DNA from: a virus
IMG/VR virus record: IMGVR_UViG_3300045988_113168
Direction: 5' to 3' (one strand)
Length of the DNA stretch: 64,000 bases
The notes under the pieces are model-generated. The model saw only the letters and a list, made by a program, of their open reading frames with translations, did no database searches and had not been told where the DNA came from. Of this stretch, positions 2,203 through 46,833 are shown piece by piece. The position numbers and the translations under genes were made by a program. The first letter of the stretch is position 1. Each line of letters starts with the position of its first letter.

Positions 2203-2231
2203 TTGACAAAATTATCGGTATCCTGTATTAT
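2203..2231 (+). promoter_or_regulatory. sigma-A type promoter (TTGACA-17-TATTAT)
   Basis: TTGACA at 2203-2208, a 17-nt spacer ending GTATCCTG, TATTAT at 2226-2231. Same architecture as the promoters at 22426 and 46670. Confidence 0.6.
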
Positions 2232-2246
2232 GTAGCTAAGAAAGGC

Positions 2247-2271
2247 AGTCCGTTAGAGGACTTTTATTTTT
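2247..2271 (+). terminator. weak hairpin plus T-run
   Basis: AGTCC/GGACT 5-bp stem with loop GTTAGA, then TTTTATTTTT. It lies between the promoter and the inverted 20-mer. Confidence 0.3.
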
Positions 2272-2278
2272 ACCGTTC

Positions 2279-2298
2279 AGCTATATAACACAGGATAC
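2279..2298 (+). promoter_or_regulatory. conserved 20-mer AGCTATATAACACAGGATAC (reverse orientation of the promoter core)
   Basis: One of six same-orientation copies, 18 nt upstream of ATG 2316. Near-perfect inverted repeat of 2218-2238. Confidence 0.55.
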
Positions 2299-2315
2299 GA
2301 AAGAGAGGCTATAAA

Positions 2316-2549
2316 ATGGAACGGAATTGGAAACTTGGTGACGATATGGTTGTGAGCGACAATCTTCTGGATGGTATTACGTTTGATGATTTGATACTGA
2401 CAGTGCATTGCAACTGTCCCAAAATTACAGAACAGGCTGTAAAAAAAGAGCTGAAAGAAATTCTTGCGATTCATATGCAGGATATGGAATTTTTACTCGA
2501 AAACAATATCGACAAGATAATTGAGATGGCAAGTAAAAACAGAGAATAA
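2316..2549 (+). CDS. hypothetical protein
   Basis: Track ORF with AGAGAGG upstream. Confidence 0.65.
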   Translation: MERNWKLGDDMVVSDNLLDGITFDDLILTVHCNCPKITEQAVKKELKEILAIHMQDMEFLLENNIDKIIEMASKNRE

Positions 2550-2561
2550 GGAGAACTGGTT

Positions 2562-3059
2562 ATGAAACGCAATGACTATAATTACGAGAGCTTTTACTAC
2601 ACAAGCGACAGCTGCCTAATTCTTATGAATGAGGTTCGTTATAAGAAAAATGATTTCGGGGAGATGATTCTTGTACCGGATGAAACAAAGGAAGAAGTGA
2701 TTTCACCTACGTTTTACACAAACTATATCACAGCAATTCCGTTCTTTAATGATGATTTCTTTGGCCCTCATGCTTCTTGTGAAGCTAAATGGGATAGAAC
2801 GCCGGCAGGAGCTGTGCCTACTGTGGTAACAACGATCAATGGTGCAGGTGATGAAAAGATTGTCGCCACATTTACATTCATCAGCAAAAGTAAGCTTTTG
2901 GATACTGCTGGATGGCGTGAAAAGGAAGTCATCAAAAATGCAAAATACTTCCATATTGAAAGAATTGACGGTGCAGATATGATTTACTTCTACACTGAAA
3001 GTGATGGCGATACGGCAGAAGGCATTTTTGATACTAAGAGATCTATTTGGAGGGGTTAA
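2562..3059 (+). CDS. hypothetical protein
   Basis: Track ORF with AAGGAG upstream. Confidence 0.7.
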   Translation: MKRNDYNYESFYYTSDSCLILMNEVRYKKNDFGEMILVPDETKEEVISPTFYTNYITAIPFFNDDFFGPHASCEAKWDRTPAGAVPTVVTTINGAGDEKIVATFTFISKSKLLDTAGWREKEVIKNAKYFHIERIDGADMIYFYTESDGDTAEGIFDTKRSIWRG

Positions 3060-14935: not shown

Positions 14936-15754
14936 ATGAGTGCAGCTGTTGAAAGAAAAGAAGAACAGATATCTAAATTGATTTATTTTAATCCGAAGCC
15001 TTCTGTTCCGGCTAAAAAACGTGGTGCTACAAAAAGTAAGCAGAAGCGTAAGCGTAATATTTCTCCAATTAGAAGCTTGGATGATGTTCAAATGATTTCA
15101 GAATACTTCTGGGATAAAAAGCAATATCGCAATTGGTGTCTATTTAATGTCGGTATTGCAACTGGGTTGCGTGCTAGTGACTTGCTTAAATTGAAAGTTT
15201 CTGATATGTCTTACTGTCTTTATAATGGAAAAATTGAGGTGGTTGAAGACGCTGGAGTATGCATCGTTGAAGAAAAAACATCCAAGTATCGCGAAATTAT
15301 TCTTACTCCAGAAGCGAGGGACATTGTTGAAACATACATCAAGATTGTGAATCTTGGATATGATGATTGGATGTTTCCGTCTCGACAAGGGAGTTGGAAA
15401 AAGTCGTTGAGGACAAATGGTGGAGATGGGAAAACTGGTATTCCTCATATTGCAGAACCTAAAAAGGCCGGTGATCCTATTGATGTTGATTCTTTTGCTC
15501 GTATTCTTCGTAATGCTGGTAAGGATTTAGGTCTTAATTATAAGATTGCTTCTCACTCTTGCCGTAAGACGTTTGGTTATCGTGAAATGTGCCTTAACAA
15601 GGATGACAATCAGGCACTGTCTTGGATTCAGAGTCAGTTGAATCATAGTAGCCAGGATATTACATTACGGTACGTTGGTTTTGATGAGGATAAGACAAAA
15701 GAATATTATAAGAAGACTTTTTATGGTGTGAATACACACAGCTTGGAAGACTGA
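14936..15754 (+). CDS. tyrosine recombinase / phage integrase family
   Basis: ATG 14936 after GAGGTGA. Box I is ATGLRASDL (Arg). Also EEKTSKYREI (Lys), HSCRKTFG (HxxR) and LNHSSQDITLRYV (His/Tyr), so the catalytic set appears complete. Confidence 0.8.
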   Translation: MSAAVERKEEQISKLIYFNPKPSVPAKKRGATKSKQKRKRNISPIRSLDDVQMISEYFWDKKQYRNWCLFNVGIATGLRASDLLKLKVSDMSYCLYNGKIEVVEDAGVCIVEEKTSKYREIILTPEARDIVETYIKIVNLGYDDWMFPSRQGSWKKSLRTNGGDGKTGIPHIAEPKKAGDPIDVDSFARILRNAGKDLGLNYKIASHSCRKTFGYREMCLNKDDNQALSWIQSQLNHSSQDITLRYVGFDEDKTKEYYKKTFYGVNTHSLED

Positions 15755-22038: not shown

Positions 22039-22080
22039 ATATCTTGAAAGTTGTTTGCGTAAGTGGAAGGCGGTATTGTG

Positions 22081-26794: not shown

Positions 26795-26801
26795 TTTATA
26801 T

Positions 26802-27061: not shown

Positions 27062-27065
27062 AAAT

Positions 27066-27258: not shown

Positions 27259-27264
27259 TTATAT

Positions 27265-27340: not shown

Positions 27341-27471
27341 CACGCAGCCCCTTACGCTGCACCGGTTGCTCAGAGCCGAAAGAAACCTATATGTTACGAC
27401 ATGGTTGCCAAGAGTGATCATATTGGAACGCGACGTAGCTTGGATAGTGAGAATTAAATTCTGAGGTATAC

Positions 27472-27540
27472 TGCTGGATAGCTTAATGGTAAAAGCGCTC
27501 GGAAACGCCGAGAGATAAGGTTCGATTCCTTCACTGGCAT
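27472..27540 (+). tRNA. degenerate tRNA-like element (no usable anticodon loop)
   Basis: The D arm GCTT-AATGGTAA-AAGC and T loop GGTTCGATTCC are good. The anticodon arm is replaced by CTCGG-AAACG-CCGAG (5-nt loop) and the acceptor pairing is weak. Confidence 0.3.
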
Positions 27541-27567
27541 CACGCCGATGAAAGTCGGCGTTTGCAT

Positions 27568-27644
27568 GGGATAGTAGCTCAGTTGGTCAGAGCTGGCGGC
27601 TCATAACCGCTTGGTCGCGAGTTCAAATCTTGCCTGTCCCACCA
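27568..27644 (+). tRNA. tRNA with CAT anticodon (elongator Met or Ile2; not initiator-like)
   Basis: Acceptor GGGATAG/CTGTCCC with a paired 1-72, anticodon arm GGCGG-CTCATAA-CCGCT, T arm GCGAG-TTCAAAT-CTTGC, CCA encoded. Confidence 0.8.
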
Positions 27645-27748
27645 GCCCGATAGGGCATACATAAAATCTGCTAGAACTTTTGTTTTATAAGCGAATGAAT
27701 AATATGACGTTAATACGTCTATTATTTTTCGCTCATTTTTAAAGTTTT

Positions 27749-27768
27749 AGCTATATAATACAGGATAC
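27749..27768 (+). promoter_or_regulatory. conserved 20-mer AGCTATATAATACAGGATAC
   Basis: Identical to 46745-46764. Lies 18 nt upstream of the presumed start of the MTase-like gene. Confidence 0.55.
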
Positions 27769-27785
27769 AAAAAGGAGGAGTTGTA

Positions 27786-28478
27786 ATCTTACGAGTTCTA
27801 ATTGCCTGTGAAGAATCACAGGAAGTTTGTAAAGCATTTCGATTGCTTGGTCATGAAGCGTATTCTTGCGATATTCAACCTCCGTCCGGTGGTTGCCCAG
27901 AGTGGCATATTTTGGGTGACGCACTGGCAGCTCTACAGGGTGGGCAGATAGTCACAATGGATGGCACACAACACTATGTTGAGCAGTGGGATCTATTGAT
28001 TGCACATCCTCCGTGTACATATTTATCAAACGCTGGCGCACGATGGTTATGGGCTGGACACAAATTGAATCAAGAACGGTATCAACGAGGATTGGAAGCT
28101 AAGGAGTTTTTTATGGCGTTTTATAACGCACCGATCAAACACATTTGTGTTGAGAATCCAATTCCGAGTGCTGTTTATGAAATGCCAAAACCATCGCAGA
28201 TGATTCAGCCATATGAATTTTATGGTAAGGACCATCCATGGACAAAGAAGACCTGTTTATGGCTGAAAGGTCTTCCTAATCTGGCTCCGGTTGAAGCGGT
28301 TGAACCGAAGGGTCCGTATTGTCCGTGTGGAACTTCCGCTAATAAAGGTAATGTAAGAAATCGTGGCGCAGCTAAACGTGGTGAGGATGCAAAGAATAGG
28401 GCTAAGACCTTCCATGGGATTGCTCGTGCTTTTGCAGAACAGTTCTCAGAGTACATTGAAAATGAAGGAGATGAGTAA
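27786..28478 (+). CDS. C5-cytosine-methyltransferase-like protein (motif IV/VI-like), apparent ATC start
   Basis: AHPPCTYLSNAG resembles C5-MTase motif IV (PC..S.AG) and CVENP resembles motif VI (ENV). No glycine-rich motif I is seen. The frame is open only from 27759 and has no ATG/GTG/TTG before 27843. ATC 27786 lies 7 nt after GGAGG. Confidence 0.5.
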   Translation: MLRVLIACEESQEVCKAFRLLGHEAYSCDIQPPSGGCPEWHILGDALAALQGGQIVTMDGTQHYVEQWDLLIAHPPCTYLSNAGARWLWAGHKLNQERYQRGLEAKEFFMAFYNAPIKHICVENPIPSAVYEMPKPSQMIQPYEFYGKDHPWTKKTCLWLKGLPNLAPVEAVEPKGPYCPCGTSANKGNVRNRGAAKRGEDAKNRAKTFHGIARAFAEQFSEYIENEGDE

Positions 28479-30476: not shown

Positions 30477-31580
30477 ATGGCAGATAGAATTTTTAATCTT
30501 CCTCAGACCCGTGGCTCTTTTGAGATGGCTGGTAAGGTCACCGGCACTCAGCGTAGCAACTTCTATAATGAGAAGGAGACAAAGAGTGGTGCTATGCGCC
30601 GTGTCTTGAGCTTTGGCGTTCAGACCTCTAACGAGAACACTTTCTATATTGATCTGGCTGGTATGCCTCGTGACAAGGTTTACTTCTTCCGACGTGCCGA
30701 TAAGGACAAGGGCATTGAGAAGGACAAGAAGGAAGTCGCTTGGAAGGATCGCATGACCTATGTTGCACCGGAAGGCTATGACATGATTGGCGTTAAGGTC
30801 GGTGTTACCAAGAAGACGAATGAGTCCGGCAAGGTTGTCAACGATAACAAGACTCTGACTGACTTCGATGCAGCTAAAGAGATTTCTGAGAACCTGCATG
30901 ACGGCGATAATGTGTATGTCCGTGGTAACATTGAGTACAGCACTTACAATGGTAAGCACCAGATTCGTTTTGTTCCTACTCAGGTGTCGCTGAGTTCTAA
31001 GGAAATCGACTTCGATGCAGAGGGTTTTGAGGAACTGGCTCTGTTCACTCAGACCATTGTGTACACTGGTTGCCGCAAGAGCGATGAGGGTGATGAAGTA
31101 GTTGTCGATGCGAAGATCGTAAACTATAACACCATCGAGGATGCAGAGTTCTTCATTGATTATAAGGCAAACGCTCAGAATAAGGTCCTGGCTGATTCTA
31201 TTCGTAAGCGTCTGAAGCCTTATACTAGCTTCGAGTGTTTTGGTCCCATCGTTAATCAGCAGAAGGTTGAGGAAGTTGAGACCGAGAATATCTGGGGTGG
31301 TCCCAACAAGATGAAGCGCCAGAGCACTCCGGCGGTTCGCAAGCTGTATATCGAGGGTGTTAATCCTGATTCCTTTGATCCGAATCCCGGCGAGAAGGAT
31401 GCAGAGCCTACTTACACCGAGGACAATATCTCTGAGGCACGTGCAAAGATTGCCGCTAATGCTCAGGCCAAGAAGGATTTTGACGGCAAGGCTGCTGAGA
31501 ACGACACTTCTTGGTGGGGTGGTTCTAACAAGTCTACTGTAACTCCTGTAGACGAGGAAGAGGATGACTGGGGAGTGTAA
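30477..31580 (+). CDS. putative ssDNA-binding protein
   Basis: The N-terminal OB-like pattern is GSFEMAGKVTG...RRVLSFGVQT. The C-terminal tip is acidic (VDEEEDDWGV). It heads the replication module. Assignment is tentative. Confidence 0.45.
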   Translation: MADRIFNLPQTRGSFEMAGKVTGTQRSNFYNEKETKSGAMRRVLSFGVQTSNENTFYIDLAGMPRDKVYFFRRADKDKGIEKDKKEVAWKDRMTYVAPEGYDMIGVKVGVTKKTNESGKVVNDNKTLTDFDAAKEISENLHDGDNVYVRGNIEYSTYNGKHQIRFVPTQVSLSSKEIDFDAEGFEELALFTQTIVYTGCRKSDEGDEVVVDAKIVNYNTIEDAEFFIDYKANAQNKVLADSIRKRLKPYTSFECFGPIVNQQKVEEVETENIWGGPNKMKRQSTPAVRKLYIEGVNPDSFDPNPGEKDAEPTYTEDNISEARAKIAANAQAKKDFDGKAAENDTSWWGGSNKSTVTPVDEEEDDWGV

Positions 31581-31591
31581 TTTTTAGTCTT

Positions 31592-31611
31592 AGCTAAGTA
31601 ACACAGGATAC
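31592..31611 (+). promoter_or_regulatory. variant of conserved 20-mer (AGCTAAGTAACACAGGATAC)
   Basis: Two mismatches to the consensus. Lies 36 nt upstream of ATG 31648. Confidence 0.45.
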
Positions 31612-36065: not shown

Positions 36066-37786
36066 ATGTAAAACTCTGGAAGGGGAGTAGGAACGACCTA
36101 TCAGATCCAATTGGAACGATTATGGAGAATAGAGGAGTCAAGGATTATAAGACCTACATGGATCTGGATGATTCTTGCTTGAGTTCTCCGTGGGAACTGG
36201 ACAACATGGAAGATGCTGTCAGGCTGTTGAACAAACATATCTGGAATAAGTCTATTATCTCTATCCTTGTAGACTGTGATGTGGATGGATTCACAAGTGC
36301 TGCAATGATGTTTCAGTATTTGAAGACGATTGGTTATTTTGGAAAAATCAATGTTCTGTATCATAGTGGCAAGGAACATGGACTCTCTAAAGAAATTGAG
36401 GTTCCACCTGAAACTACCTTGCTGATTATTCCTGATGCTGGCAGCAACGACGTTGAGCAGTGTAAGGAACTCCGTGAAAAGGGCATTGATATTTTAATTC
36501 TTGACCATCATATCTGTGATAGAGAAAACCCTTACGCAGTAATTGTCAACAACCAGAACGGTACATATCCTAATAAGGAATTATCTGGCGCTGGCGTGGT
36601 GTATAAGTTTCTTCAGGCTGTTGATGAATATAATTGGACTGATGTTGCAGACCGATATCTTGATCTGGTTGCTGTCGGAAACATTGGTGATGTCATGGAT
36701 ATGCACTCACACGAGACAAAACGTCTTTGCACGAAAGGTCTTGCACGAATTGTAAATCCGATGATTTGCGCTCTGATTGAGGCAAATAGTTTCAATATCA
36801 AGGGCGACCCGACTATCAATGATGTTCAGTTCTACATTGTTCCAATGATGAACGCATTGATTCGTGTTGGCGCATCTGAGCAAAAAAAGCGGATGTTCCG
36901 TGCGATGGTCGGTGAAGAACAGACATTCCAGTATACTCCGACTCGTGGTAAGAATGCTGGTGTCACGATTGATGAAACTCTGGCGCAGCATGTGGCTCGT
37001 GAGTGTTCCTCTTGCAAGTATCAGCAGAATAAAATCAAGGACAAGGCTGTTGGAGAGCTTCAGAAGTTAATTGAAAAGCACGGTGCAGACCAGAATAAGA
37101 TTCTTTTCTGTAACTCTACAGGTATTCTTGATAACACTCTGACCGGTGTTGTAGCAATCAAGCTGGCTGAAATGTACGCAAAACCGTGTGTGTTGCTTCG
37201 TACTTTTACTGATGAACCGGACTATTATGGTGGTTCAATGAGAAATCCTGACGGTTCTCCGATTGAAAGCCTAAAGGAATTCTTGATGAGCACCGGAGAT
37301 TTTGAATCGGTTCTTGGTCACGACAATGCTGCTGGTGTGAAAATCAAGAAAGAAAACGTGCCAAAGGCTATTGCAGACTGTGATGAACTGCTTAAAGATG
37401 TCACTATGAGTAAGGCAATCGTGGTTGACTTTGATTTTGATTACAATAAATTGAACGTTGCATTGCCGAAAACGATGTATGAGATGCACAAAATCTGGGC
37501 ACAAGGAATTTCCGAGCCGTATTTCTACATTAAAAATATTCCGCTGATTCATAGTGGATGTGCTCCGATGGGCAAGAACGGCAATATGTGGAAGTATTCT
37601 GACGAAGAAAAAGGCATTGATTTTGTGTGTTTTAATGACAATGGCCGGATGATTGGCTGGATTAACAATGACTTCTATGGTGGTCAAGAAGAAAAATACA
37701 TCAATGCTGTATGCCGGTTGTCTTTGAATCAGTATGGAAACAAGGTGACTCCGCAGGCACAGATTGTTGATTTTGAGGTGATTTGA
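36062..37786 (+). CDS. RecJ-like DHH-family ssDNA exonuclease
   Basis: DHH motifs are VDCDVDG, PDAGS, LDHH and GAGVVYKF. A C-terminal DHHA1-like region is present. Confidence 0.65.
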   Translation: MNVKLWKGSRNDLSDPIGTIMENRGVKDYKTYMDLDDSCLSSPWELDNMEDAVRLLNKHIWNKSIISILVDCDVDGFTSAAMMFQYLKTIGYFGKINVLYHSGKEHGLSKEIEVPPETTLLIIPDAGSNDVEQCKELREKGIDILILDHHICDRENPYAVIVNNQNGTYPNKELSGAGVVYKFLQAVDEYNWTDVADRYLDLVAVGNIGDVMDMHSHETKRLCTKGLARIVNPMICALIEANSFNIKGDPTINDVQFYIVPMMNALIRVGASEQKKRMFRAMVGEEQTFQYTPTRGKNAGVTIDETLAQHVARECSSCKYQQNKIKDKAVGELQKLIEKHGADQNKILFCNSTGILDNTLTGVVAIKLAEMYAKPCVLLRTFTDEPDYYGGSMRNPDGSPIESLKEFLMSTGDFESVLGHDNAAGVKIKKENVPKAIADCDELLKDVTMSKAIVVDFDFDYNKLNVALPKTMYEMHKIWAQGISEPYFYIKNIPLIHSGCAPMGKNGNMWKYSDEEKGIDFVCFNDNGRMIGWINNDFYGGQEEKYINAVCRLSLNQYGNKVTPQAQIVDFEVI

Positions 37787-37787
37787 T

Positions 37788-38129
37788 ATGGGAAATCTGA
37801 AGCGTGCTATTGCCATCGACTTTGATGGCACTCTCTGTGAGAATAATTATCCCGATATTGGTGAGCCAAACTGGAATGTCATTTATCAAGCAATTCAGGA
37901 ACAGAAGCACGGTGCTGGTCTGATTCTCTGGACTTGCCGTGAAGGAAAGCTTTTGTATGATGCAATGGAGGCTTGCTTTGATTGGGGTATTCAGTTTGAT
38001 GCAATCAATGAGAGTCTTCCTGAGTGGAAAGAGCATTTTGGCACTGCTCCTAGAAAGGTTGGAGCTGATGAATATTGGGACGATAAAGCTAAAGTTGTAA
38101 AGAATGGAGAGTTGATTGATAATGAATAA
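37788..38129 (+). CDS. small HAD-like phosphatase-fold protein
   Basis: The motif DFDGTL lies near the N-terminus. Assignment is tentative. Confidence 0.45.
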   Translation: MGNLKRAIAIDFDGTLCENNYPDIGEPNWNVIYQAIQEQKHGAGLILWTCREGKLLYDAMEACFDWGIQFDAINESLPEWKEHFGTAPRKVGADEYWDDKAKVVKNGELIDNE

Positions 38130-38427
38130 AGTGGATAATTACGATTTGTCATTAAATTTGCTTGACAAAGCACATCAATCACTTGCACATACTATTGCAG
38201 ATTTAGAACTACTTCGGGAAGGCACAGCATTTAATCAGATTTTAAATGATGGTGCTCATATTATTGAACCGGATGAATTGACTCATATTCTTGATAAATT
38301 TGCAGAGCAGCATCCAGATTGGGAGATTTGTATCGAAACTGACCACGGATCGGTTAGTGAGAAATTTAAGATGGATCATGTTTTCTATGAAGGTATGGGA
38401 GATATGATTGTTCTTGATTTTGAATGA
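38122..38427 (+). CDS. hypothetical protein
   Basis: ATG 38122 inside track ORF 38116..38427. Confidence 0.55.
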   Translation: MNKVDNYDLSLNLLDKAHQSLAHTIADLELLREGTAFNQILNDGAHIIEPDELTHILDKFAEQHPDWEICIETDHGSVSEKFKMDHVFYEGMGDMIVLDFE

Positions 38428-38430
38428 AAA

Positions 38431-38679
38431 ATGGAAAAACGACGATATAGATATTACAAAATTGATTACCGTACATATAATTATACGCTCAAGAAATATC
38501 ACAACTTACACAGAGAAATCTACGCTGAAAATGCAAGAGATGCAGTTAAAATGCTAAAAAGCAAAGAGTGTAATCGTGAGTTTGAGATTGTTAAAGTCTA
38601 CTTTGTTGATATTTTCGGTGATAGAAACGATAGGTTTTATCCACGAACTTATGTGATTGATAAAGAAGATTTTGAGTGA
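38431..38679 (+). CDS. hypothetical protein
   Basis: Track ORF. Confidence 0.55.
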   Translation: MEKRRYRYYKIDYRTYNYTLKKYHNLHREIYAENARDAVKMLKSKECNREFEIVKVYFVDIFGDRNDRFYPRTYVIDKEDFE

Positions 38680-38688
38680 GGTGAGTAT

Positions 38689-39450
38689 ATGGTTTACATT
38701 ACAGGCGATATTCATGGTGACTTTAATCGGTTTTTAGAATTGGAAAAGTTTTGCCATGAACACAATCTTGGAAAGAATGACTGGATTGTCTGCCTTGGCG
38801 ATGTCGGTTTGAACTATTACGGCAAGGACGACCCTCGCGAATGGAGTATAAAAACTATCGCCGCAGATATTCCTGCAAATCTGTTTTGTATTCATGGCAA
38901 CCACGAGCGCCGCCCGTCTCGTAAGGATGGTTATAGGACAAAGGAAATCAGTGGAGATATTTGTGGTAATGTGTGGTATGACCCACATTATCCAAATCAG
39001 TATTTTGCTATTGATGGCGAAGTCTATCAAATTCTTGCTGATAGGGAAGTATTAAACTGTCTTGTTTGCGGCGGAGCCTATTCTGTAGATAAATATTATC
39101 GGTTGGAACGTGGATATAATTGGTTTCCTGATGAACAGCCGAGTGAGAAGACTAAGAAAAAGATCTGGAATATTACACACGATCCTCAAATCGATGATAT
39201 TGATGTTATGCTCACGCATACCTGTCCATTCCGGTTCATTCCAACTGGATTGTTTATTGGTGGTATTGACCAAAGCACAGTAGACCAGTCAACTGAAATA
39301 TTCTTTGATAATATATACGAATGCTATCCTAACGATTGTAAACCGTTCTGGTATTTTGGTCACTTCCATGGCAATAAATACACTGACGATTATGTAATGC
39401 TTTTTGATGATATTATTAAGTTTGGAGATAAAGTGAAGAGTGATGAGTGA
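38689..39450 (+). CDS. metallophosphoesterase
   Basis: GDIHGD, GDVGLN and HGNHE motifs present. Confidence 0.7.
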   Translation: MVYITGDIHGDFNRFLELEKFCHEHNLGKNDWIVCLGDVGLNYYGKDDPREWSIKTIAADIPANLFCIHGNHERRPSRKDGYRTKEISGDICGNVWYDPHYPNQYFAIDGEVYQILADREVLNCLVCGGAYSVDKYYRLERGYNWFPDEQPSEKTKKKIWNITHDPQIDDIDVMLTHTCPFRFIPTGLFIGGIDQSTVDQSTEIFFDNIYECYPNDCKPFWYFGHFHGNKYTDDYVMLFDDIIKFGDKVKSDE

Positions 39451-39685
39451 ATATCATGTGAGCTGTGGAATGTTTGGTATTTACGCAGGAACTGTTAAGA
39501 AGAATGGCACGGAATGGAAAGACAAAACTCGTGTTACAGACGAAGCTATTGAAGCAGTTCGTGATTGGCTTCTTTCTGAGGCCCAGTTCAACAATAGAAC
39601 TTTTGGTGGATACACATGGACAACAAAGGACGGTAAGACTGTAACTTTGAGAGTGTCCATCGAAGATAAGGAGCAGGCAGAATGA
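39443..39685 (+). CDS. hypothetical protein
   Basis: ATG 39443 inside track ORF 39440..39685. Confidence 0.6.
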   Translation: MSEYHVSCGMFGIYAGTVKKNGTEWKDKTRVTDEAIEAVRDWLLSEAQFNNRTFGGYTWTTKDGKTVTLRVSIEDKEQAE

Positions 39686-40005
39686 TCAAAGATAAAAATT
39701 TACGAGTGCTTGATTATATTGATGGCAAAGAAATCCTCATTCAGATGGGTGAGGAAGGTTCTGAACTGTCAAAAGCTGCGATAAAGTTTTATCGTGCAAT
39801 TGACATGAAGAACCCGACACCTGTAAGTATCAATGAAGCTTACGAAAATCTCGTAGAAGAATTCGGTGATGTGCTGAATTGTATCTACGCATACTATGAT
39901 GATGACGAGGATTGCATCTTGGCGTTTACATCGAAAGCGAATGAGATTGCTAACGAGAAGCGCAAGCGCTGGATTAAGCGCTTGAAGGAACGTAATCAGT
40001 TTTAA
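39682..40005 (+). CDS. MazG-like nucleotide pyrophosphohydrolase (small phage type)
   Basis: EEGSELSKA ... EEFGDVLNC fits the EExxE...ExxD metal-binding helices of MazG-type proteins. Confidence 0.5.
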   Translation: MIKDKNLRVLDYIDGKEILIQMGEEGSELSKAAIKFYRAIDMKNPTPVSINEAYENLVEEFGDVLNCIYAYYDDDEDCILAFTSKANEIANEKRKRWIKRLKERNQF

Positions 40006-40022
40006 TGGTAAAAGGAGAATAG

Positions 40023-43000
40023 ATGTCAGATAATTTTGTAAATCTTCATGTACATACAGCGCAGGGTTCGTTACTTGACTCTATTCTTACCGTCAAGGAA
40101 CTTGTAGACTTTGCCAAAGAGAATGGTCAGAAGGCTATTGCTGTTACGGATCATGGCAAGATGCACTCTTTCGTTGACCAAGTTAAGGCTTGTAAAGCAG
40201 AAGGTATTAAGCCTATCATCGGCTGTGAAGTCTATGAAGTAGATAATCAGGCAGAGAAAGCCGATACAAAAGACTATAAACAACCTCGTTACCATCTTGT
40301 TTTACTAGCAAAGAACGAGACCGGTTTAAAAAATCTATTTAAGATTGTTTCAAATGCTTGCGTTGATGGTATGTATAAAAAGCCTCGAACTTCTTTGAAT
40401 ATTATTGAACAGAACGAGTGGGGTAAAGGTATCATCTGTCTTACAGCCTGCCAAGTTGGTCGAATGAGTAGATTGCTTGTTGATGGCAACGAGACTGAAG
40501 CATGGCAGTTATGGAACAAACTGAAATGGATCTTTGATGACGTGTTTATGGAAGTTCAGTCTCATGATACGCCAGATCAGGCTGAAGCTAATGCCAAAAT
40601 TGCAGCTTTTATCAAAAAGTACAATATTCCGTATACCATTACAACTGATGCTCATATGCTTTCCAAGGAAGATGTTGATGCACATTCAGTTTTTGTAGAA
40701 ATTGGAGAAGGACGAGAAGTTGGAGAAAGTTATGTTGACTGCTATCTTCAGACCGAAGACGATGTGCTGAGAACACTTTCAAAGCAGTTTGATGAAGACT
40801 TCATCCGAGAAGGCTGCTCAATGTCTGTGAAGATTGCAGATATGATTGATAATATTGACATTGGCCTCGGTCAGCCGAATCAGATGCCCGAAGTGAAAAT
40901 TGAAGGTGAATTTGATTCGCATCTGGATTACCTGCGTTACCTCGTTTATTCTACTTTTGATGAAAAATTCGGATGGATGAGTAAAGAAGAACAGCAAACC
41001 CGGCGGGATAGAATTGAGATGGAGCTTGACGTTCTTGAATACGTTGACTACATCGATTACTTCATTATGCTATATATGCTTTGCAAGGTGGCTGATGAAC
41101 GAGGTATCCCTCGCGGCTATTCTCGTGGTTCTGGTGCAAACTGTCTATGTCTATTTATGTTAAACGTTACGCAGATTGATTCTGTTCGTTGGGATCTTGA
41201 CTTCTCTCGTTTTGCAAATAAAGGTCGTAAGAGTCTCGCAGACTTCGACTTTGATATTAGCCGTCGTCGTCGCAAAGAACTTGTTTCTATTGCAGAAGAG
41301 CTTTTTGGAAAAGAGAGTGTAGCACCAATCGCAACTTTTAATTCTCTGTCTACAAAGGTTGCCATTAAGGATATTGGCAAGGTACTGAACGAAGATCCAG
41401 AAAGCCCATATTATATGCAGATTCCGTATGAATTGCGAAATGAAGTTGCTAAGTTGATTCCGACCGTGAAAACATTGGATGATCTCGGAGAAGAAGTTGA
41501 GAAGGAAGTTCTATTGAAGGACATTCTTGGAAAAAGCGAGCAGCTTTCTAATGTGTATGATAAGTTTCCTCTGTGGTTTAAGTACGTTATGCGACTTGAA
41601 GGTTTACCGAAGAGTATGGGTCGCCATGCTGCAGGAACTTTGATTACGCCTAAGCCTGTTATTGAATATTGTCCTCTCTGTATGGATAGAGAAGGTAATC
41701 AGATGTGTCAGCTTGAAATGCACAATGCAATGGACGACTTATCGTTGGTCAAGATGGATTTTCTTGGTCTTGAAAATTTGGACACGATTGATGACACATT
41801 AAAGATGGCCGGTCTAACTTGGAAGGATGTTGACATCAACCATCTCGACCTAAACGATAAGGCAGTCTACGACGCAGTTTATAAGTCTGGACACACAATT
41901 GGTATTTTTCAGATGGAGTCTGCTGAAGCTCGAAAGATGTGTGTTGAAGCAAAATGTGACAACGCCGAGGATATCATTGTTGTGAATGCAGCAAACCGCC
42001 CTGGTACTAAGGACAGCTTCCCGACGTATTGTTCCAATAAGCTTTACCCAGAAACTATCAAACTACTTCATCCTGATATCAAACAGCTTTTTGCCAAGAC
42101 TCAGTACATTCTTCTTTATCAGGAACAGGCTCTGGCAGTATTTCGTTATGCAGGATTCCCTGAAACTGAGGTTGACAATGCTCGTCGTGCAATTGGTAAG
42201 AAAAAGAAAGATGTTATGGCATCCTTGGAGGTCCAGTTTAGAGATGGTCTTCACAAAAAAGGATGGAACGATTATCAGATCTCTGAGATGTGGGCATTGA
42301 TCTTGAAACAGGCTTCTTATTCCTTCAACCGGGGCCACGCAGTTGCTTATGGACTTCTTTCTTACCTGACAGCATACCTGAAGACTCATTATACTGAGTA
42401 TTTCATGGCTGCGTGTATGATTACTAAAGAAGATGATTCTGGCAAAATGGGTGTGTTCATCAATGAATGTGACCGTCTACATATTCGGGTCCTTCCTCCA
42501 AGTGTTAACAAGTCTGATATGGAATTTAAGGCCGATGCAGAAAAGCACACAATTCTGTTTGGCTTGAAAGCCATTAAAGGAATGGGTGAGAGTGTCGCAT
42601 CAGGGGTGATTGCAGACCGTCCATATTCTGGATTGGCAGACTTTGTTCAGAGAGCAAACGGTGGCAAGATTGGCACTTCAAACGTTGTCAAGTTGATTAA
42701 GGCGGGAGCTATTCCAACAAAAGACAAGAGAAAAATCTTAATCACTTTTGCAAATATGGTTTTTGAGAACGAGTATAAAGAGAAAGGTTTCCACGAAATG
42801 GCATCTCTCCCCAAGATCTCTATTCTCAAAGATGAATACGGAATTGACACAGATTCTATTAAAGACAAACCTACCAGACTCGCCTTATATAATAAGGTAA
42901 GAAGGGAGCGCTGGGAAGCGGACTCATGGAATCGGAAGAAAGAAAAAGACAAAAAGCGGAATGCCTTTATGCAGGCGTTTGCTGAAAAGTATATGCAAGA

Positions 43001-43367
43001 CGAGCACATGTGGGAATTTGAAACCCTTTCAATGTTCTTGACTAGCAATCCCATTAAGGATGCTTGCACCTATATTGATGCTGGTCTTGATACTGTAGAG
43101 GATGGCGGTAAGGCAACTGTTATTTGTGTCATCGTAGATATCCAAAAAAAGAAGGATAAACGTGGCAACCAGTTTGCATACTTACATGTTTACACGACAG
43201 GTGGTATTGTCGAAATGATTTGTTGGGCATCTCAGTATGCACGATATTCAAGTCTGATTTCAAAGGGTAGCGATCTTGCAATCCTTTGCAAGAGAAAAGA
43301 AAATTCGTACATTGTTGAGAAGATGAAGCCATACAAGCAGTGGCTGCGAGATAGAGAGATAGCGTAA
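40023..43367 (+). CDS. dnaE: DNA polymerase III alpha subunit (DnaE-type)
   Basis: The N-terminal PHP domain is LHVHTAQGSLLDS...AVTDHG. Length is 1114 aa. The polymerase core and HhH region are typical of Pol III alpha. Confidence 0.85.
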   Translation: MSDNFVNLHVHTAQGSLLDSILTVKELVDFAKENGQKAIAVTDHGKMHSFVDQVKACKAEGIKPIIGCEVYEVDNQAEKADTKDYKQPRYHLVLLAKNETGLKNLFKIVSNACVDGMYKKPRTSLNIIEQNEWGKGIICLTACQVGRMSRLLVDGNETEAWQLWNKLKWIFDDVFMEVQSHDTPDQAEANAKIAAFIKKYNIPYTITTDAHMLSKEDVDAHSVFVEIGEGREVGESYVDCYLQTEDDVLRTLSKQFDEDFIREGCSMSVKIADMIDNIDIGLGQPNQMPEVKIEGEFDSHLDYLRYLVYSTFDEKFGWMSKEEQQTRRDRIEMELDVLEYVDYIDYFIMLYMLCKVADERGIPRGYSRGSGANCLCLFMLNVTQIDSVRWDLDFSRFANKGRKSLADFDFDISRRRRKELVSIAEELFGKESVAPIATFNSLSTKVAIKDIGKVLNEDPESPYYMQIPYELRNEVAKLIPTVKTLDDLGEEVEKEVLLKDILGKSEQLSNVYDKFPLWFKYVMRLEGLPKSMGRHAAGTLITPKPVIEYCPLCMDREGNQMCQLEMHNAMDDLSLVKMDFLGLENLDTIDDTLKMAGLTWKDVDINHLDLNDKAVYDAVYKSGHTIGIFQMESAEARKMCVEAKCDNAEDIIVVNAANRPGTKDSFPTYCSNKLYPETIKLLHPDIKQLFAKTQYILLYQEQALAVFRYAGFPETEVDNARRAIGKKKKDVMASLEVQFRDGLHKKGWNDYQISEMWALILKQASYSFNRGHAVAYGLLSYLTAYLKTHYTEYFMAACMITKEDDSGKMGVFINECDRLHIRVLPPSVNKSDMEFKADAEKHTILFGLKAIKGMGESVASGVIADRPYSGLADFVQRANGGKIGTSNVVKLIKAGAIPTKDKRKILITFANMVFENEYKEKGFHEMASLPKISILKDEYGIDTDSIKDKPTRLALYNKVRRERWEADSWNRKKEKDKKRNAFMQAFAEKYMQDEHMWEFETLSMFLTSNPIKDACTYIDAGLDTVEDGGKATVICVIVDIQKKKDKRGNQFAYLHVYTTGGIVEMICWASQYARYSSLISKGSDLAILCKRKENSYIVEKMKPYKQWLRDREIA

Positions 43368-43379
43368 GAGGGTTGTAAA

Positions 43380-46300
43380 GTGGCAGATAAGAAATTTAAT
43401 GAAAATATGATCCGTTGTTACATCAGGATAAAACGAGTCTTTTATCCGAAAGATGGGAAGGAGGTGGAGCCCGGCGGCTTCGCCACTTTCTCTGCCGAGG
43501 TGGTAAAAGTCAAGCAGGGGAACCCCATTATGAGCCGATACAGTGACCTCCGACTGAAAGGCAACGTCCCTAGCCTTGATATGGATAAGACTTATTCGTT
43601 CTGTGGTGAGTATGTTCACCATGAAAAGTTTGGGGACCAGTATAAAATCGTCTATATGAACGAGTTCCAAGAGATTACTGACCCAGAAGAACAGAAAAGC
43701 TTTCTTCATTTTATCTTGACAGAACATCAGTTTGAGATGCTTTACGAAGCATTTGATAATCCGTATGAAATCATCAAGAACGGTGATATCAAGTCTCTTT
43801 GCACTGTTAGTGGTATCACAGAAGGTCGAGCACAGAAAATTATCGATGCCTTTGAAAATAACATTGATAACAGCGAAGCATACACGAAGCTGATTGAGTA
43901 TGGTTTGACTCCAAGTGCAATCGGAAAACTTGTTCATCAATATCACGGTGCAGACACTCTTGTGAAGAAAATTGAAGAGAATCCTTATGTTCTGATTGAC
44001 GATGTATATGGGATTGGATGGAAGAAAGCTGACGCTCTTGCTTTGAATATGGGATTGAAGCCAAACTCTCAGTTCCGAATTGAAGCTTACGTCATGCATT
44101 TTCTTGCTGATCGTGCCGAAGAAGGCAATTCTATCATCCCGGCAAACCAGACAATCAATAGTTGCATTAAGGAACTTGGCTTGGATGAGGGTGACCAAGA
44201 GGTTATCAAGAGAGCACTTTTCCATCTGCACGATGTCCGTGAAACGCTTTGGTGGAGTGATGATCGTCAGGAATTTGCTTTGACCAGAGTGTGGAATCTG
44301 GAAAATGAGATTGCAAAGGAAATCAAGCGTCTGGCAGATGCACCTGTCGAGCCGATTGGTCGAAATATGGATGCTGCAATCGACGAGGCGGAACGTGCTC
44401 TCGGCATCGAGTACACTGAGGAGCAGAGAGATGCTATTAAAAAGGTATGCTCTAGTAATGTCTGTATCTTGACAGGCTACGGCGGATGCCTCGATGCAGA
44501 GATGGAGTTCTTTAATGGTGTCCAATGGAAAAAAATAAAAGATTATGTTAAGGGCGACAAAGTTCTTCAATATAATGAAAATGGGACTACAACGCTTGTT
44601 GAGCCTGAGAAATATGTAAAATTCAAATGTGAATATCTATATCACATGAAAAACAAGTCGGGTAGTATCAATCAACTATTGAGTGCAGAGCATAATGTTG
44701 TTTACTTGACCAGTAAAAACAATTTAGCTAAAATCCCAATGTGGGAGTTGTATCAAAGAAATGTTAAACGAAAGTCTGGGTTTAACGGACATTTTATAAC
44801 AACGTTCAATTATGATGGCCCAGGAATCGATTTGAGCGATGCTGATATTAGACTAATGTGTGCTGTTATTTGCGATGGATCGTTTTTGAAGGATCATAAA
44901 TCAGCTTGGTGTAGAGTAAACGTAAAAAAAGAGCGAAAGAAACTTCGCATGAGAAGACTTCTTTCGGAAAGTGGTAGATACTTTGATGAGCATCAGTGGA
45001 ATCCAAAAGACTTGGAATATTCGAACTTTGTCTTTTACGCTCCAAGAAAAGAAAAAAGATTTACTTCGTATTGGTATAACTGTAATCATCATCAGCTAGA
45101 GGTGATTTGCGATGAGATTCTAAATTGGGACGGCCATGTGAAAGAGGGGAGACGGAAAGATTTTAGTACACTGATTAAAGAAACGGCAGATTTTATTCAG
45201 TTCGCATTTTCTTCTTGTGGTTATCGTTCTGTTGTATATGAATCAAATATTGAACGGCACGGTAAAATGGTCAAAGAGTATAATGTTCATATTGTGCAAC
45301 ACTCGAATGGAAAAGTTTCTCTTATGACAAAAGGCAGTAAAAGCGATATTGATATTGTTCGTTCAAGCGATGGATATAAGTATTGTTTTACTGTTCCGTC
45401 TCATATGTTTCTGACAAGATATAATGGAAGAATTTGTGTCACAGGCAACACTGGTAAAAGTACCGTTGTCGCTGGTGTCCTAAAGGTTCTTCGTGGTAAG
45501 TCTTTTGCACAGACTGCACTCTCTGGCCGTGCTGCCGCTCGTATGCAGGAGATTACTGGTCAGGATGGAAAGACGATTCATCGACTCCTTGGATATGACA
45601 TCGAGAACGGTGGGTTTGTTCACGATAAAGACAATCCTCTGGATGAAGATATCATCATTCTGGATGAGACCTCCATGGTTGGAGCTCAGTTGTTCTATGA
45701 CTTGATTCAGGCTATCGAGACCGGAAAGCGATTCATCATGATTGGCGATGACGGACAGCTTGAGAGTATCGGTATGTGCAACATCTTCAAGGATATGCTT
45801 GCATCCAAGGTTGTTCCGGTTGCTCGCTTGACTAAGATTCACCGTCAGGCTGCTAAGTCAGCGATTATCACTGAGAGTATCAAGGTTCGTAATGCCACGC
45901 AGTTGGTTCCTTACGGTTGGGCTGGTAATGAGATTCGTGGCGAGCTGCGTGATTTGGAGCTTGATATCTATAAGGATGCAGGCGAGTCATTTAGCCATAT
46001 CATCAATCAGTATCGTACCTTATATAATAAGGTAGGGAACGATAGTGCAAAGATTCAAATCGTACTTCCACAGAAGCTCCGTGGCAGCATCTGCACCTAC
46101 GAGGTCAATAATGCCATTCAAGAAATTGTAAATCCGAGTCGTGGTCAGACCGAAGCGAAGATCTCCATCTATGGTGATGGCAAGGACAGAGTATACACTC
46201 TGCGTGAGGGCGATCAGGTCATTATCAATAAGAATAACTATGAACTTCATACATACAATCTCAAGACAAAGAAAAAGGAAGATAAGTGTCCGGTGTTTAA

Positions 46301-46673
46301 CGGCAACCGTGGCATCATTCGAAAGATTGAAGGCAGTTTTATTCTGGTTGATTTTGACCAGTGGGGCACGATCTTCATTCCTCATTATTTTGGTGGGAAC
46401 AACATCTGGGCAACACTTGAACTCGCTTATGCTTTGAGTTGTCATAAACTGCAAGGTAGCGAAGCTCCGTATGTGATTGTCGGCATGGATAACTCTGCAT
46501 ACTTGATGTTGACGAGGGAATGGCTTTATACGGCCATCACTCGTGCTAAGAAGTATTGTGTGATTTGTGCTGAAACTCATGCTCTTGATCGGGCGGTAAA
46601 GACTTCGAGAGTTCCATACAAGCGGACGTTCTTGAAGGAATTTTTACGGAAAGAATTTTCAGAAAAGCATTGA
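43380..46673 (+). CDS. RecD-like SF1 helicase interrupted by an intein
   Basis: GTG start. Walker A is split (GYGG / TGKST). Also DETSMV (Walker B), SCHKLQGSE, and LYTAITRAKK (motif VI). Confidence 0.8.
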   Translation: MADKKFNENMIRCYIRIKRVFYPKDGKEVEPGGFATFSAEVVKVKQGNPIMSRYSDLRLKGNVPSLDMDKTYSFCGEYVHHEKFGDQYKIVYMNEFQEITDPEEQKSFLHFILTEHQFEMLYEAFDNPYEIIKNGDIKSLCTVSGITEGRAQKIIDAFENNIDNSEAYTKLIEYGLTPSAIGKLVHQYHGADTLVKKIEENPYVLIDDVYGIGWKKADALALNMGLKPNSQFRIEAYVMHFLADRAEEGNSIIPANQTINSCIKELGLDEGDQEVIKRALFHLHDVRETLWWSDDRQEFALTRVWNLENEIAKEIKRLADAPVEPIGRNMDAAIDEAERALGIEYTEEQRDAIKKVCSSNVCILTGYGGCLDAEMEFFNGVQWKKIKDYVKGDKVLQYNENGTTTLVEPEKYVKFKCEYLYHMKNKSGSINQLLSAEHNVVYLTSKNNLAKIPMWELYQRNVKRKSGFNGHFITTFNYDGPGIDLSDADIRLMCAVICDGSFLKDHKSAWCRVNVKKERKKLRMRRLLSESGRYFDEHQWNPKDLEYSNFVFYAPRKEKRFTSYWYNCNHHQLEVICDEILNWDGHVKEGRRKDFSTLIKETADFIQFAFSSCGYRSVVYESNIERHGKMVKEYNVHIVQHSNGKVSLMTKGSKSDIDIVRSSDGYKYCFTVPSHMFLTRYNGRICVTGNTGKSTVVAGVLKVLRGKSFAQTALSGRAAARMQEITGQDGKTIHRLLGYDIENGGFVHDKDNPLDEDIIILDETSMVGAQLFYDLIQAIETGKRFIMIGDDGQLESIGMCNIFKDMLASKVVPVARLTKIHRQAAKSAIITESIKVRNATQLVPYGWAGNEIRGELRDLELDIYKDAGESFSHIINQYRTLYNKVGNDSAKIQIVLPQKLRGSICTYEVNNAIQEIVNPSRGQTEAKISIYGDGKDRVYTLREGDQVIINKNNYELHTYNLKTKKKEDKCPVFNGNRGIIRKIEGSFILVDFDQWGTIFIPHYFGGNNIWATLELAYALSCHKLQGSEAPYVIVGMDNSAYLMLTREWLYTAITRAKKYCVICAETHALDRAVKTSRVPYKRTFLKEFLRKEFSEKH
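44487..45449 (+). mobile_element. intein (321 aa) with LAGLIDADG-like endonuclease region, inserted in the helicase P-loop
   Basis: Starts with Cys (CLDAEM) directly after GYGG and ends ...VTGN. It is followed by Thr of TGKST, which restores GYGGTGKST. LMCAVICDGSF is a LAGLIDADG-like block. Confidence 0.7.
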
Positions 46674-46698
46674 CAATTATATGAGTATCCTGTATAAT
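46670..46698 (+). promoter_or_regulatory. sigma-A type promoter (TTGACA-17-TATAAT) with conserved core
   Basis: TTGACA at 46670-75 overlaps the helicase stop. TATAAT at 46693-98. The 21-mer at 46685-46705 is identical to 22441-22461. Confidence 0.65.
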
Positions 46699-46744
46699 AT
46701 AGCTATAAAAAGTCTCCACCTCGGAGGCTTAAAATTCTCTCTTT

Positions 46745-46764
46745 AGCTATATAATACAGGATAC
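46745..46764 (+). promoter_or_regulatory. conserved 20-mer AGCTATATAATACAGGATAC
   Basis: Inverted repeat partner of 46685-46705 (one mismatch). Followed by a terminator hairpin. Confidence 0.55.
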
Positions 46765-46775
46765 GAGGAAGAAAT

Positions 46776-46806
46776 GGCTTGCTCGTAATGGCAAGCCTTT
46801 CTTTAT
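46776..46806 (+). terminator. rho-independent terminator
   Basis: GGCTTGC-TCGTAATG-GCAAGCC stem-loop followed by TTTCTTTAT. Confidence 0.65.
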
Positions 46807-46813
46807 TCATTAT

Positions 46814-46833
46814 AACTATATAACACAGGATAC
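46814..46833 (+). promoter_or_regulatory. conserved 20-mer AACTATATAACACAGGATAC
   Basis: Lies 13 nt upstream of ATG 46847, directly after the terminator. Confidence 0.55.

Follow-up and report, generated by a model that had tools for sequence, protein, structure and literature searches.

The element and its genomic setting

The 64,000 nt stretch from the IMG/VR virus record IMGVR_UViG_3300045988_113168, referred to here as the window, carries multiple copies of a 21 bp element that reads TAGCTATATAAYACAGGATAC towards the gene it faces. Judging by its arrangement, this 21-mer is a transcription control site, either a promoter directed by the phage or the binding site of a repressor. All genes in the window lie on the + strand. 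They include those for a tyrosine-recombinase-family protein (14936-15754, 272 amino acids; Pfam, 4.8e-16), a MazF/PemK-like protein (22498) and a fusion of Pnkp with an RNA ligase (24032), which is followed by eight or nine tRNAs. The replication genes encode a primase-like protein, RecJ, DNA polymerase III alpha (40023), RecD2 (43380) and an ATP-dependent DNA ligase (46847), and ThyX (51350-52066, 238 amino acids) and NrdD are also present, while Bro-N/KilAC antirepressor-like genes occur in the phage. No near DNA match to the window was found among isolated phages, the closest polymerase III alpha proteins being those of Clostridium phage Amboise (47%) and Alicyclobacillus phage KKP_3916. 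The window sequence is contained in human-gut assemblies of ~137.7 kb, and scaffold_68 of ENA ZHAN15-1 is 100% identical to it over 36847-54861.

The word GTATCCTGTRTWATATAGCTA is found at nine sites within the window, against an expectation of zero by chance. When up to three mismatches are allowed there are eight matches, compared with none in 100 shuffles, and the ninth copy (31591-31611) is a variant, TAGCTAAGTAACACAGGATAC, that carries the invariant GTATCCTGT core. A weight matrix derived from the copies in related contigs, applied to both strands, scored the nine copies at 28.5-37.2 bits and the rest of the 64 kb at below 8 bits; on the basis of this gap, the element is a discrete class rather than the tail of an AT-rich distribution. 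All nine copies, in both orientations, had been located by a first-pass annotation of the window, which used 20-mers starting one base later than the 21-mers described here. The two pairs of identical reverse copies it noted were likewise recovered (27748 and 46744; 23933 and 46813), alongside an identical pair in the forward orientation (22441 and 46685). The extent it gave, 2218-46833, was too narrow, as the genome of ~137 kb contains ~12 copies: the nine in the window and three others 2.6-7.6 kb upstream of position 1.

When the copies are aligned, their information content reaches background exactly at either edge of the 21 bp block. The invariant positions of the gene-facing reading are T1, A2, C4, T5, A6, A11, A13, C14, A15, G16, G17, A18, T19 and C21. 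Across 321 unique copies, 14 positions are kept in at least 97% and the others in ~70-94%, which defines two invariant blocks, TA.CTA and A.ACAGGAT.C, on either side of a variable centre. The hexamer at positions 7-12 is the most variable part of the element, with positions 7-10 varying most and position 12, the would-be -7 position of a promoter, being C in 30% of copies.

Conservation among related phages

A scan of IMG/VR with a degenerate form of the word detected at least 117 loci, nearly all in 70-140 kb contigs of the same phage family. Among the matches listed, almost all map to positions equivalent to those in the window, the others being at a divergent locus and upstream of a polymerase gene, both described below; of the ~170 exact matches listed, none falls outside either the window region or the region from the divergent locus to the polymerase gene. 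Hundreds of copies are present in related gut-phage contigs, and the 21-mer is less variable than neutral sites. At orthologous loci the word is kept and the adjacent bases vary: 5-6 nt between the -35 hexamer and the forward copy differ in almost every contig, and the -35 hexamer itself is always kept at the orthologues of the promoter at 2218. At the ligase site, third codon positions have a nucleotide diversity of ~0.26, against 0-0.19 for the element, the last eight bases of which have a diversity of 0; the three bases just past it are at the neutral level. Because diversity inside the element is below that of third codon positions, the whole 21-mer is under purifying selection, and the earlier proposal of a phage-specific regulatory site gains from the same signal being seen in several hundred related contigs. 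Hypermutation beside the element was considered and rejected, as flanking diversity (0.07-0.28) equals that of third codon positions.

At four sites a mosaic junction lies immediately after the GGATAC end of the element, such that the gene or leader behind one and the same terminator and element varies from contig to contig. These junctions, the presence of three 80 bp units in which a forward and a reverse copy enclose 38 bp, and the recombinase-family gene would suit a role in recombination or mobility, with the 21-mer acting as a linker for module exchange in the manner of the promoter-early stem-loops of T4-type phages, as the terminal inverted repeats of a ~80 bp unit resembling a miniature inverted-repeat transposable element (MITE), or as the target of a tyrosine recombinase. 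Such a role is very improbable. The three units share no internal sequence, their 38-40 bp interiors consisting of a sigma-A promoter in one and of dissimilar hairpins in the other two, hence the units are not copies of one mobile element, and the MITE was rejected as a candidate. The element also lacks the dyad symmetry of tyrosine-recombinase core sites, variation beside it is at the neutral level rather than raised, and contigs are all collinear across the inverted pair at 22441 and 23933. An invertible segment at 22441-23953 was rejected likewise, all spanning contigs being collinear with the window, although assemblies show the majority orientation only. The mosaic junctions are, moreover, an expected by-product of homologous recombination at conserved promoters or operators.

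A site for a host factor was also rejected, since matches in 185,579 species-representative genomes amount to two independent events against ~9 expected by chance. The exact 21-mer TAGCTAYATAATACAGGATAC is found in a conserved intergenic locus of four Faecalibacterium genomes (F. prausnitzii ATCC 27768, F. tardum and two metagenome-assembled genomes), and there is one match in a further metagenome-assembled genome. The Faecalibacterium locus is flanked by a gene of 251 amino acids, possibly aroD-like by its N-terminal sequence, and by apparent rRNA-operon promoters, and the DNA around the copy has no similarity to the phage. This copy could be a hint of the host or of a shared factor, the count being within chance expectation.

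Forward copies within host-type promoters

The three copies in the forward orientation, the gene-facing reading of which is on the minus strand, provide the spacer end, -10 hexamer and start region of promoters with a TTGACA or TTGACT -35 hexamer and a 17 nt spacer, as the first-pass annotation had described. The first (2218-2238; 35.9 bits, two mismatches) has TTGACA at 2203-2208 and TATTAT as its -10, and scores 11/12 as a sigma-A promoter. The second (22441-22461; 34.8 bits), with TTGACT at 22426-22431 and an internal TATAAT, also scores 11/12 and would drive the MazF/PemK-like gene (22498-22917). The third (46685-46705; 34.8 bits) has TTGACA at 46670-46675 and an internal TATAAT, a perfect 12/12. 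In each case the -10 hexamer, TATNNT, coincides with element positions 9-14. Among 465 unique related contexts, 111 have a -35 hexamer, which is always TTGACA or TTGACT, and all 111 keep TATNNT. The forward copies are real sigma-A promoters of the host type.

Two of them (2218 and 46685) each have a gene-facing partner 59-60 bp downstream, beyond a hairpin. The hairpin of the first pair (2247-2272, + strand) is a terminator of the form AGTCC-6-GGACT followed by a T tract, the stem of which is kept in orthologues, and that of the second (46714-46726) resembles a terminator only when read on the minus strand.

Outside coding sequence, the 64 kb contains sigma-A-like promoters with scores of 10/12 or more at 2203, 22011, 22426 and 46670, which are probably joined by one at 644, which was called coding by the script although the gene start most likely lies at 701. 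The same scan revealed no other candidate promoter for the Pnkp/tRNA, 27.8-kb and replication modules, and copies of the element are the sole promoter-like signal for the modules at 23.9-46.7 kb. The promoter at 22011 (TTGACT-16-TATAAT), which is free of the element, precedes a 114-amino-acid open reading frame (22063-22407), after which come the element promoter and the MazF/PemK-like toxin gene; these two genes may constitute a toxin-antitoxin pair with separate promoters.

Gene-facing copies behind terminators

The other copies in the window read towards the downstream gene, and at five sites (2278, 23933, 27748, 46744 and 46813) they start 14-16 nt past a hairpin, generating a common layout of terminator hairpin, 14-16 nt, element, 4-80 nt and Shine-Dalgarno sequence. 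In most contexts the end of the element is 4-6 nt from the Shine-Dalgarno sequence, and the distance from element to start codon is 9-78 nt. The copy at 2278-2298, CAGCTATATAACACAGGATAC (+ strand, as are all those that follow; 32.9 bits), is 16 nt after the hairpin of the first inverted pair and 17 nt before the ATG at 2316. That at 23933-23953, TAACTATATAACACAGGATAC (33.5 bits), follows by 14 nt a terminator hairpin at 23902-23918 (-18.1 kcal/mol, z -4.2) and heads the Pnkp-RNA ligase gene and tRNA cluster. The copy at 27748-27768 has the consensus sequence, TAGCTATATAATACAGGATAC (37.2 bits), and lies downstream of a terminator hairpin core (27706-27719) and 5 nt before the Shine-Dalgarno sequence AGGAGG. 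The variant copy at 31591-31611 (28.5 bits) is 10 nt after the stop codon of the gene at 30477-31580 and heads the replication module, which begins at 31648. The remaining two are in close succession. The copy at 46744-46764 (37.2 bits) is followed by a four-codon open reading frame (MACS) embedded in the next terminator, a hairpin with a TTTCTTTATT tail at 46776-46797, and the copy at 46813-46833 (33.5 bits) is 15 nt after this hairpin and 13 nt before the ATG of the DNA ligase gene.

The reverse copies had earlier been placed just after terminators and 13-80 nt upstream of the first genes of functional blocks. They do head such blocks, at the slightly different distances given above, and five sites do have a hairpin; that before 46744, however, is terminator-like only on the opposite strand, and the copy at 31591 directly follows a stop codon without a terminator.

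Two of these leaders have unusual features. The frame containing …ILRVLIACEESQEVCKAFRLLGHEAYSCD… after the copy at 27748 (27769-27845) has a good AGGAGG and no in-frame ATG, GTG or TTG near it, and may start at an ATC at ~27786 or a TTG at 27843. Between 46765 and 46797, a Shine-Dalgarno-like GAGGAAG precedes the four-codon frame (ATG GCT TGC TCG TAA) inside the terminator stem, which could represent an arrangement resembling a leader peptide or attenuator, or else a short RNA.

A strict orientation rule emerges when the whole genome is considered: each of the eight copies that do not overlap a sigma-A -10 hexamer faces the downstream gene, these being the six just described, the copy before the polymerase gene and the polymerase-arm member of the divergent pair. 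They escape the constraints that apply to sigma-A promoters. In 354 of the 465 unique related contexts there is no -35 hexamer matching at 5/6 or more positions in either reading, and the hexamer at positions 7-12 takes forms such as TATAAC, TACAAT and CATAAT. As they lack a -35 and their would-be -10 is the most variable part of the element, gene-facing copies were rejected as sigma-A promoters. The first-pass annotation was therefore right that the reverse copies in the window have no -35 on either strand, but the TATAAT or TATAAC through which it suggested they might act is the least conserved hexamer, with the frequent C at its would-be -7 position. Two further candidates were discarded. 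Were the forward reading a T7-like promoter ending in TATAG, 8 of the 12 copies would fire into the preceding terminator; and for a sigma-H-like -35 (RNAGGAWWW) within ACAGGATAC, neither the downstream -10 nor its spacing is conserved.

The proximity of gene-facing copies to many Shine-Dalgarno sequences, the MazF-like RNase gene and the strong folding of forward-reverse pairs (-32 and -35 kcal/mol; z -7 and -10) raise the question of a function at the level of RNA, in which the 21-mer would be a motif of the 5' untranslated region cut or bound upstream of the ribosome-binding site, or forward and reverse copies in read-through transcripts would form a stem for RNase III. This is hardly credible. 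The element alone folds at 0 kcal/mol, most copies are without a partner and no Rfam match was found, while the inverted copies, located in promoters that leave most of the word untranscribed, are conserved as DNA; an RNA motif was rejected for these reasons. Even jointly, the RNA-level and the recombination or mobility explanations are distinctly unlikely. Because the inverted copies keep all 21 positions though their RNA reading would differ, and because the word is unstructured and unmatched in Rfam, recognition of the 21-mer as duplex DNA is the one firm conclusion.

The polymerase gene and the divergent arms

The genome from which the window derives (contig L124) and 80 related loci have a second arm transcribed in the opposite direction. 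At the junction of the two arms, a strong sigma-A promoter (TTGAAT-17-TGgTATAAT) is enclosed by two inverted copies of the element, spaced 59 bp apart and pointing outward, one into the polymerase arm and the other into ~1.8 kb of non-coding, iteron-rich DNA before the window arm. This inter-arm DNA, 1.8-2 kb in length (4200-6100 in contig L116; 6300-8030 in L124), has no convincing open reading frame. It includes iterons of AGTTACAA/AGTAACAA in tandem, ACTTTTGAAGTCCA motifs that recur and a GCGCGCGCG stretch rich in GC, and has the appearance of a replication origin, a partition site or a packaging region.

Approximately 3-5 kb beyond the divergent pair, outside the window, is the gene for a YonO-like single-subunit RNA polymerase of 927 amino acids (L124 1-1316, minus strand, ~8.7-10 kb upstream of position 1; L116 10466-13249). 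The protein matches the Pfam family RdRP (PF05183, 2.4e-14) and YonO of SPBc2 (blastp, 4e-22), with DFDAD aligned opposite the catalytic DNDGD, and in tblastn its SPbeta-group matches include proteins annotated as the yonO DNA-directed RNA polymerase. With both the two-barrel homology and the DxDxD motif, it belongs to the YonO family. In 65 of 69 related loci, a copy of the element lies 51 nt before the ATG of this gene. The element seems to be missing from the late arm, no copy being found in the 10 kb 3' of the polymerase gene, the part of that arm that was read directly.

The polymerase gene heads the structural arm in PMBT24, BUCT082 and SPbeta too. Its 3' end is overlapped by ~20 nt by an open reading frame of 249-251 amino acids, a pairing that recurs in PMBT24 and BUCT082 and is absent from SPbeta; the product could be an accessory or specificity subunit. 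Further along the late arm (contig L129, 16440-17530) there is ~1.1 kb without open reading frames, containing tRNA-like sequences recognised by eye, between a metallophosphatase-like gene and the structural genes. It is placed like the non-coding yonN-yonK region of SPbeta, which holds the YonO start site, and has ClpP-like and PhoH-like genes just upstream.

No sigma factor or helix-turn-helix protein was recognised by Pfam among the ~110 open reading frames of the window that were scanned. In PMBT24 a gene for a sigma factor lies between those for polymerase III alpha and RecD2; it is absent from the window phage, tblastn with the PMBT24 protein revealing no homologue. These results bear on the possibility that the 21-mer serves as a promoter of the middle class for a host RNA polymerase that a sigma-like or activator protein of the phage has redirected, as gp55 or MotA does in T4 and gp28 in SPO1, and as happens in P23-45, such that the YonO-type polymerase gene would itself be a middle gene whose product transcribes only the late arm, from another promoter. 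This would yield a three-stage cascade, consistent with the late-only role of YonO in SPbeta; the polymerase gene is preceded by a copy as other middle modules are, the late arm shows none in the 10 kb read, and the early region has dozens of open reading frames without an assigned function. It is nevertheless improbable, given that no sigma-like gene was detected, that the best-conserved part of the element, ACAGGATAC, is downstream of the AT-rich centre, unlike in sigma-dependent or -10-only promoters, and that C so often replaces the would-be -7 T.

Function of the element

The orientation of all eight copies that lie outside sigma-A promoters, the succession of terminator, element and ribosome-binding site, the fact that the middle modules have no other promoter, the phage's possession of its own polymerase and the absence of a recognised sigma factor or helix-turn-helix protein together favour the 21-mer being a phage-specific promoter, probably for the YonO-type polymerase, which in the reverse orientation would occlude early host promoters. 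This is the explanation we tentatively prefer. The format of the element is in keeping with it, as a contiguous, sharply bounded word of ~20 bp, located where transcription units begin and reading in the same direction as the gene, resembles the promoters of single-subunit polymerases and not the bipartite signals of sigma factors.

On this basis the 21-mer would be a double-stranded, orientation-dependent recognition site for the phage's own transcription machinery. Read towards the gene, it would act as a promoter immediately behind the terminator that closes the previous unit, with a transcription start that precedes the next module's ribosome-binding site by a few bases, possibly, by analogy only, at the invariant GG of positions 16-17. 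The most likely reader would be the 927-amino-acid polymerase, alone or with a specificity factor such as the product of the overlapping 251-amino-acid open reading frame. The copy 51 nt before the polymerase gene would then establish positive feedback, and could also drive the late arm. In the opposite orientation, inside the three early sigma-A promoters, an occupied site would block host RNA polymerase at the -10 hexamer and so shut off early transcription. The strongest version of this proposal, that TAGCTATATAAYACAGGATAC is the first promoter consensus for the YonO family and that the enzyme runs both the middle and late programmes while silencing early promoters through an antisense copy in the -10 region, is rather doubtful.

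Several observations weigh against a promoter for the YonO-type polymerase. The copies are not all co-directional: 4 of the 12 (2218, 22441, 46685 and one of the divergent pair) are directed away from genes or towards non-coding DNA, and we know of no precedent for antisense or away-pointing copies in T7-type phages. At three unrelated loci the starts of the two copies in an inverted pair are consistently 59-61 bp apart, which looks more like cooperative protein binding than two independent promoters, and a variable centre between two conserved blocks would suit a DNA-binding protein with two domains as well. The first 10 kb past the polymerase gene are free of copies, and the polymerase gene of PMBT24 has an ordinary TTGACA-17-TATAAT promoter. 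In SPbeta, YonO is needed only for 37 late genes, with one start site downstream of yonO-yonN (PMC5467207); replication-arm genes are not YonO-dependent, and the two promoters tested, PaimR and PyosX, function when the remainder of the phage is absent (PMC5467207, PMC10516654). On the favourable side, nothing contradicts assignment of the element to the YonO-type polymerase, because the promoter of YonO was explicitly stated to be unknown in 2017 (PMC5467207); literature searches found no later paper defining it. No similarity to the P(YonO) region of SPbeta was found, and the exact start site in that region could not be placed from primer sequences.

The main rival, somewhat less probable, is that the element is the operator and 'stoperator' of a DNA-binding repressor of the phage. 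Such a protein would cover the early sigma-A -10 at forward copies, and two copies would bracket the sigma-A promoter of the divergent locus, while gene-facing copies would block, in an orientation-dependent manner, polymerase leaking through the preceding terminator; the effect would be to silence the replication modules and polymerase gene, either during lysogeny or a carrier state or once the early phase is over. Every one of the 12 copies, the four 'wrong-way' ones among them, is explained as a binding site, and the constancy of the pair spacing around unrelated interiors suggests cooperativity. The distribution closely matches that of the SPBRE motif of SPbeta, in a genome laid out like SPbeta with the polymerase, a late arm and a divergent replication arm, and stoperators of the L5 type are similarly asymmetric, found in short intergenic spaces and functional in only one orientation relative to transcription (PMC9283540). 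The phage also carries the Bro-N/KilAC antirepressor-like genes and the recombinase-family gene.

No candidate repressor was recognised, however, and the ~110 open reading frames scanned gave no helix-turn-helix match. The recombinase-family protein encoded at 14936-15754 keeps the R, HxxR, H and Y residues when aligned with XerA, unlike MrpR, and has no significant blastp similarity to YopR or YopP, so that the XerA alignment and blastp provide no MrpR-like repressor with lost catalytic residues. If the element were an operator, the middle modules would be left promoterless and would require read-through of two or three terminators. The copies in sigma-A promoters have a polarity opposite to that of the intergenic copies, no integrated copy of the phage was found in the 185,579 species-representative genomes, and a relative, PMBT24, is reportedly virulent (PMC11035940). 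The two options raised by the first-pass annotation, a -35-independent promoter and a site for a phage regulator, are both still the live explanations; a hybrid, in which a specificity factor recruits the phage polymerase and blocks the host enzyme, is also possible.

YonO-type enzymes are minimal relatives of the cellular multi-subunit RNA polymerases, and their means of locating promoters and possible need for a specificity factor were open questions in 2017 (PMC5467207). An abundant family of human-gut phages that pairs such an enzyme with a 12-copy, 21 bp word obeying a clear orientation rule offers a defined DNA substrate. Should the word instead be a repressor site, it would extend genome-wide silencing of the SPBRE or stoperator style to an uncultured gut-phage lineage, and would serve as bait for the repressor. 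Either way, for the annotation of several hundred metagenomic phage genomes it marks precisely both the boundaries of transcription units and the mosaic junctions.

Other features of the phage genome

The region at 24032-27644 encodes, in a 736-amino-acid fusion, a polynucleotide kinase, a metallophosphatase and a T4 Rnl1-type RNA ligase directly upstream of the tRNA cluster, an arrangement that would fit a tRNA-repair module. ARAGORN detects among the tRNAs a tRNA-His with the unusual anticodon ATG (26989-27062), and Rfam adds a tRNA at 27472-27540 that ARAGORN missed. Within the RecD2 gene (43380-46673), an in-frame 963 bp segment (44487-45449) is missing from many relatives, BLAST alignments breaking exactly there, and the protein has 776 amino acids in the related contig L120 versus 1097 in the window. 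The segment looks like an intein or other mobile insertion, in which Pfam found no Hint or endonuclease domain. Similarly, the ThyX of one relative (L119, 14504-16162) has 552 amino acids and a faint LAGLIDADG match, versus 238 in the window, which suggests the insertion of a homing endonuclease or intein. Metagenome contigs with the ligase junction (L221, L230, L242 and others), of which ~10 kb around each match was seen, are 150-211 kb long as against a genome of ~137 kb, and could be integrated prophages, larger relatives or assembly concatemers. A scan of metagenome contigs for ends at the element that might mark transcripts yielded DNA contigs only.

Comparison with known systems

Comparisons with PMBT24, BUCT082, Amboise and c-st revealed no homologue of the element. 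The first 50 kb of BUCT082, scanned for the SPBRE core only, does not contain that core; neither the polymerase gene nor the element is in the first 50 kb of Amboise; and the c-st locus is disrupted by insertion sequence elements. PMBT24, a phage of Enterocloster, has a repeat of its own, TTCAATTCGTAAAGTAAAA, in ~6 copies (1082, 2171, 5038, 73410, 73610 and 87076), at least two of which lie ~20 nt upstream of TTGACA.

Several classes of phage signal share some of the properties of the 21-mer. The late promoters of T4, TATAAATA, used with gp55, and the extended -10 promoters of the Thermus phage P23-45 have no -35 and consist of an AT-rich core within an 8-9 bp signal of the -10 type, whereas the AT-rich hexamer of the 21-mer is its least conserved part and is flanked by conserved blocks. 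The promoter-early stem-loop cassettes (PeSL) of T4-type phages combine a host-type early promoter with a stem-loop at module boundaries and coincide with mosaic junctions, but include neither a separate 21 bp word nor an inverted partner copy. Promoters of T7, T3 and SP6 are contiguous, near-identical and sharply bounded sequences of ~20 bp, present 10-17 times per genome at the starts of units after terminators, in which an AT-rich stretch is followed by an invariant GG. The 21-mer has the same contiguous, sharply bounded, unit-start format and invariant GG; it differs in that its centre is variable, a third of its copies are antisense in host promoters, and the polymerase of this phage belongs to the unrelated two-barrel YonO family.

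SPBRE is a 15 bp motif found in ten promoter regions of SPbeta, including that of yonP, just upstream of yonO, and those of replication-arm genes, and is bound by MrpR, a catalytically dead repressor with a tyrosine-recombinase fold (PMC10516654). Seven copies were located in SPBc2, all gene-facing, downstream of annotated stem-loops and ending 1-25 nt before the Shine-Dalgarno sequence. In both systems, a short word repeated around ten times in a phage of ~135 kb with a YonO polymerase lies in the promoter regions of early and middle operons, behind stem-loops and facing the gene, and heads the replication-arm operons and the polymerase operon while being absent from the late operon. The two words have no sequence similarity. 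The seven SPBRE copies are all in one orientation and form the spacer and -10 of a host promoter, whereas only 3 of the 12 copies of the 21-mer do so and most are inverted and lack features of a host promoter; SPbeta is, furthermore, a proven temperate phage, and no MrpR homologue was found here.

The repressor sites of cluster A mycobacteriophages are asymmetric and occur in promoters and in short intergenic gaps with a polarity tied to transcription (PMC9283540). Like the stoperators of L5 gp71 and TipsytheTRex, the 21-mer is asymmetric and multi-copy, with some copies in a promoter, most in short intergenic gaps and a strict orientation. Those stoperators are 13 bp rather than 21 bp in length, number 20-30 copies, are not behind terminators and have a known helix-turn-helix repressor, and it is a distinguishing property of the 21-mer that its promoter copies are opposite in polarity to the intergenic ones.

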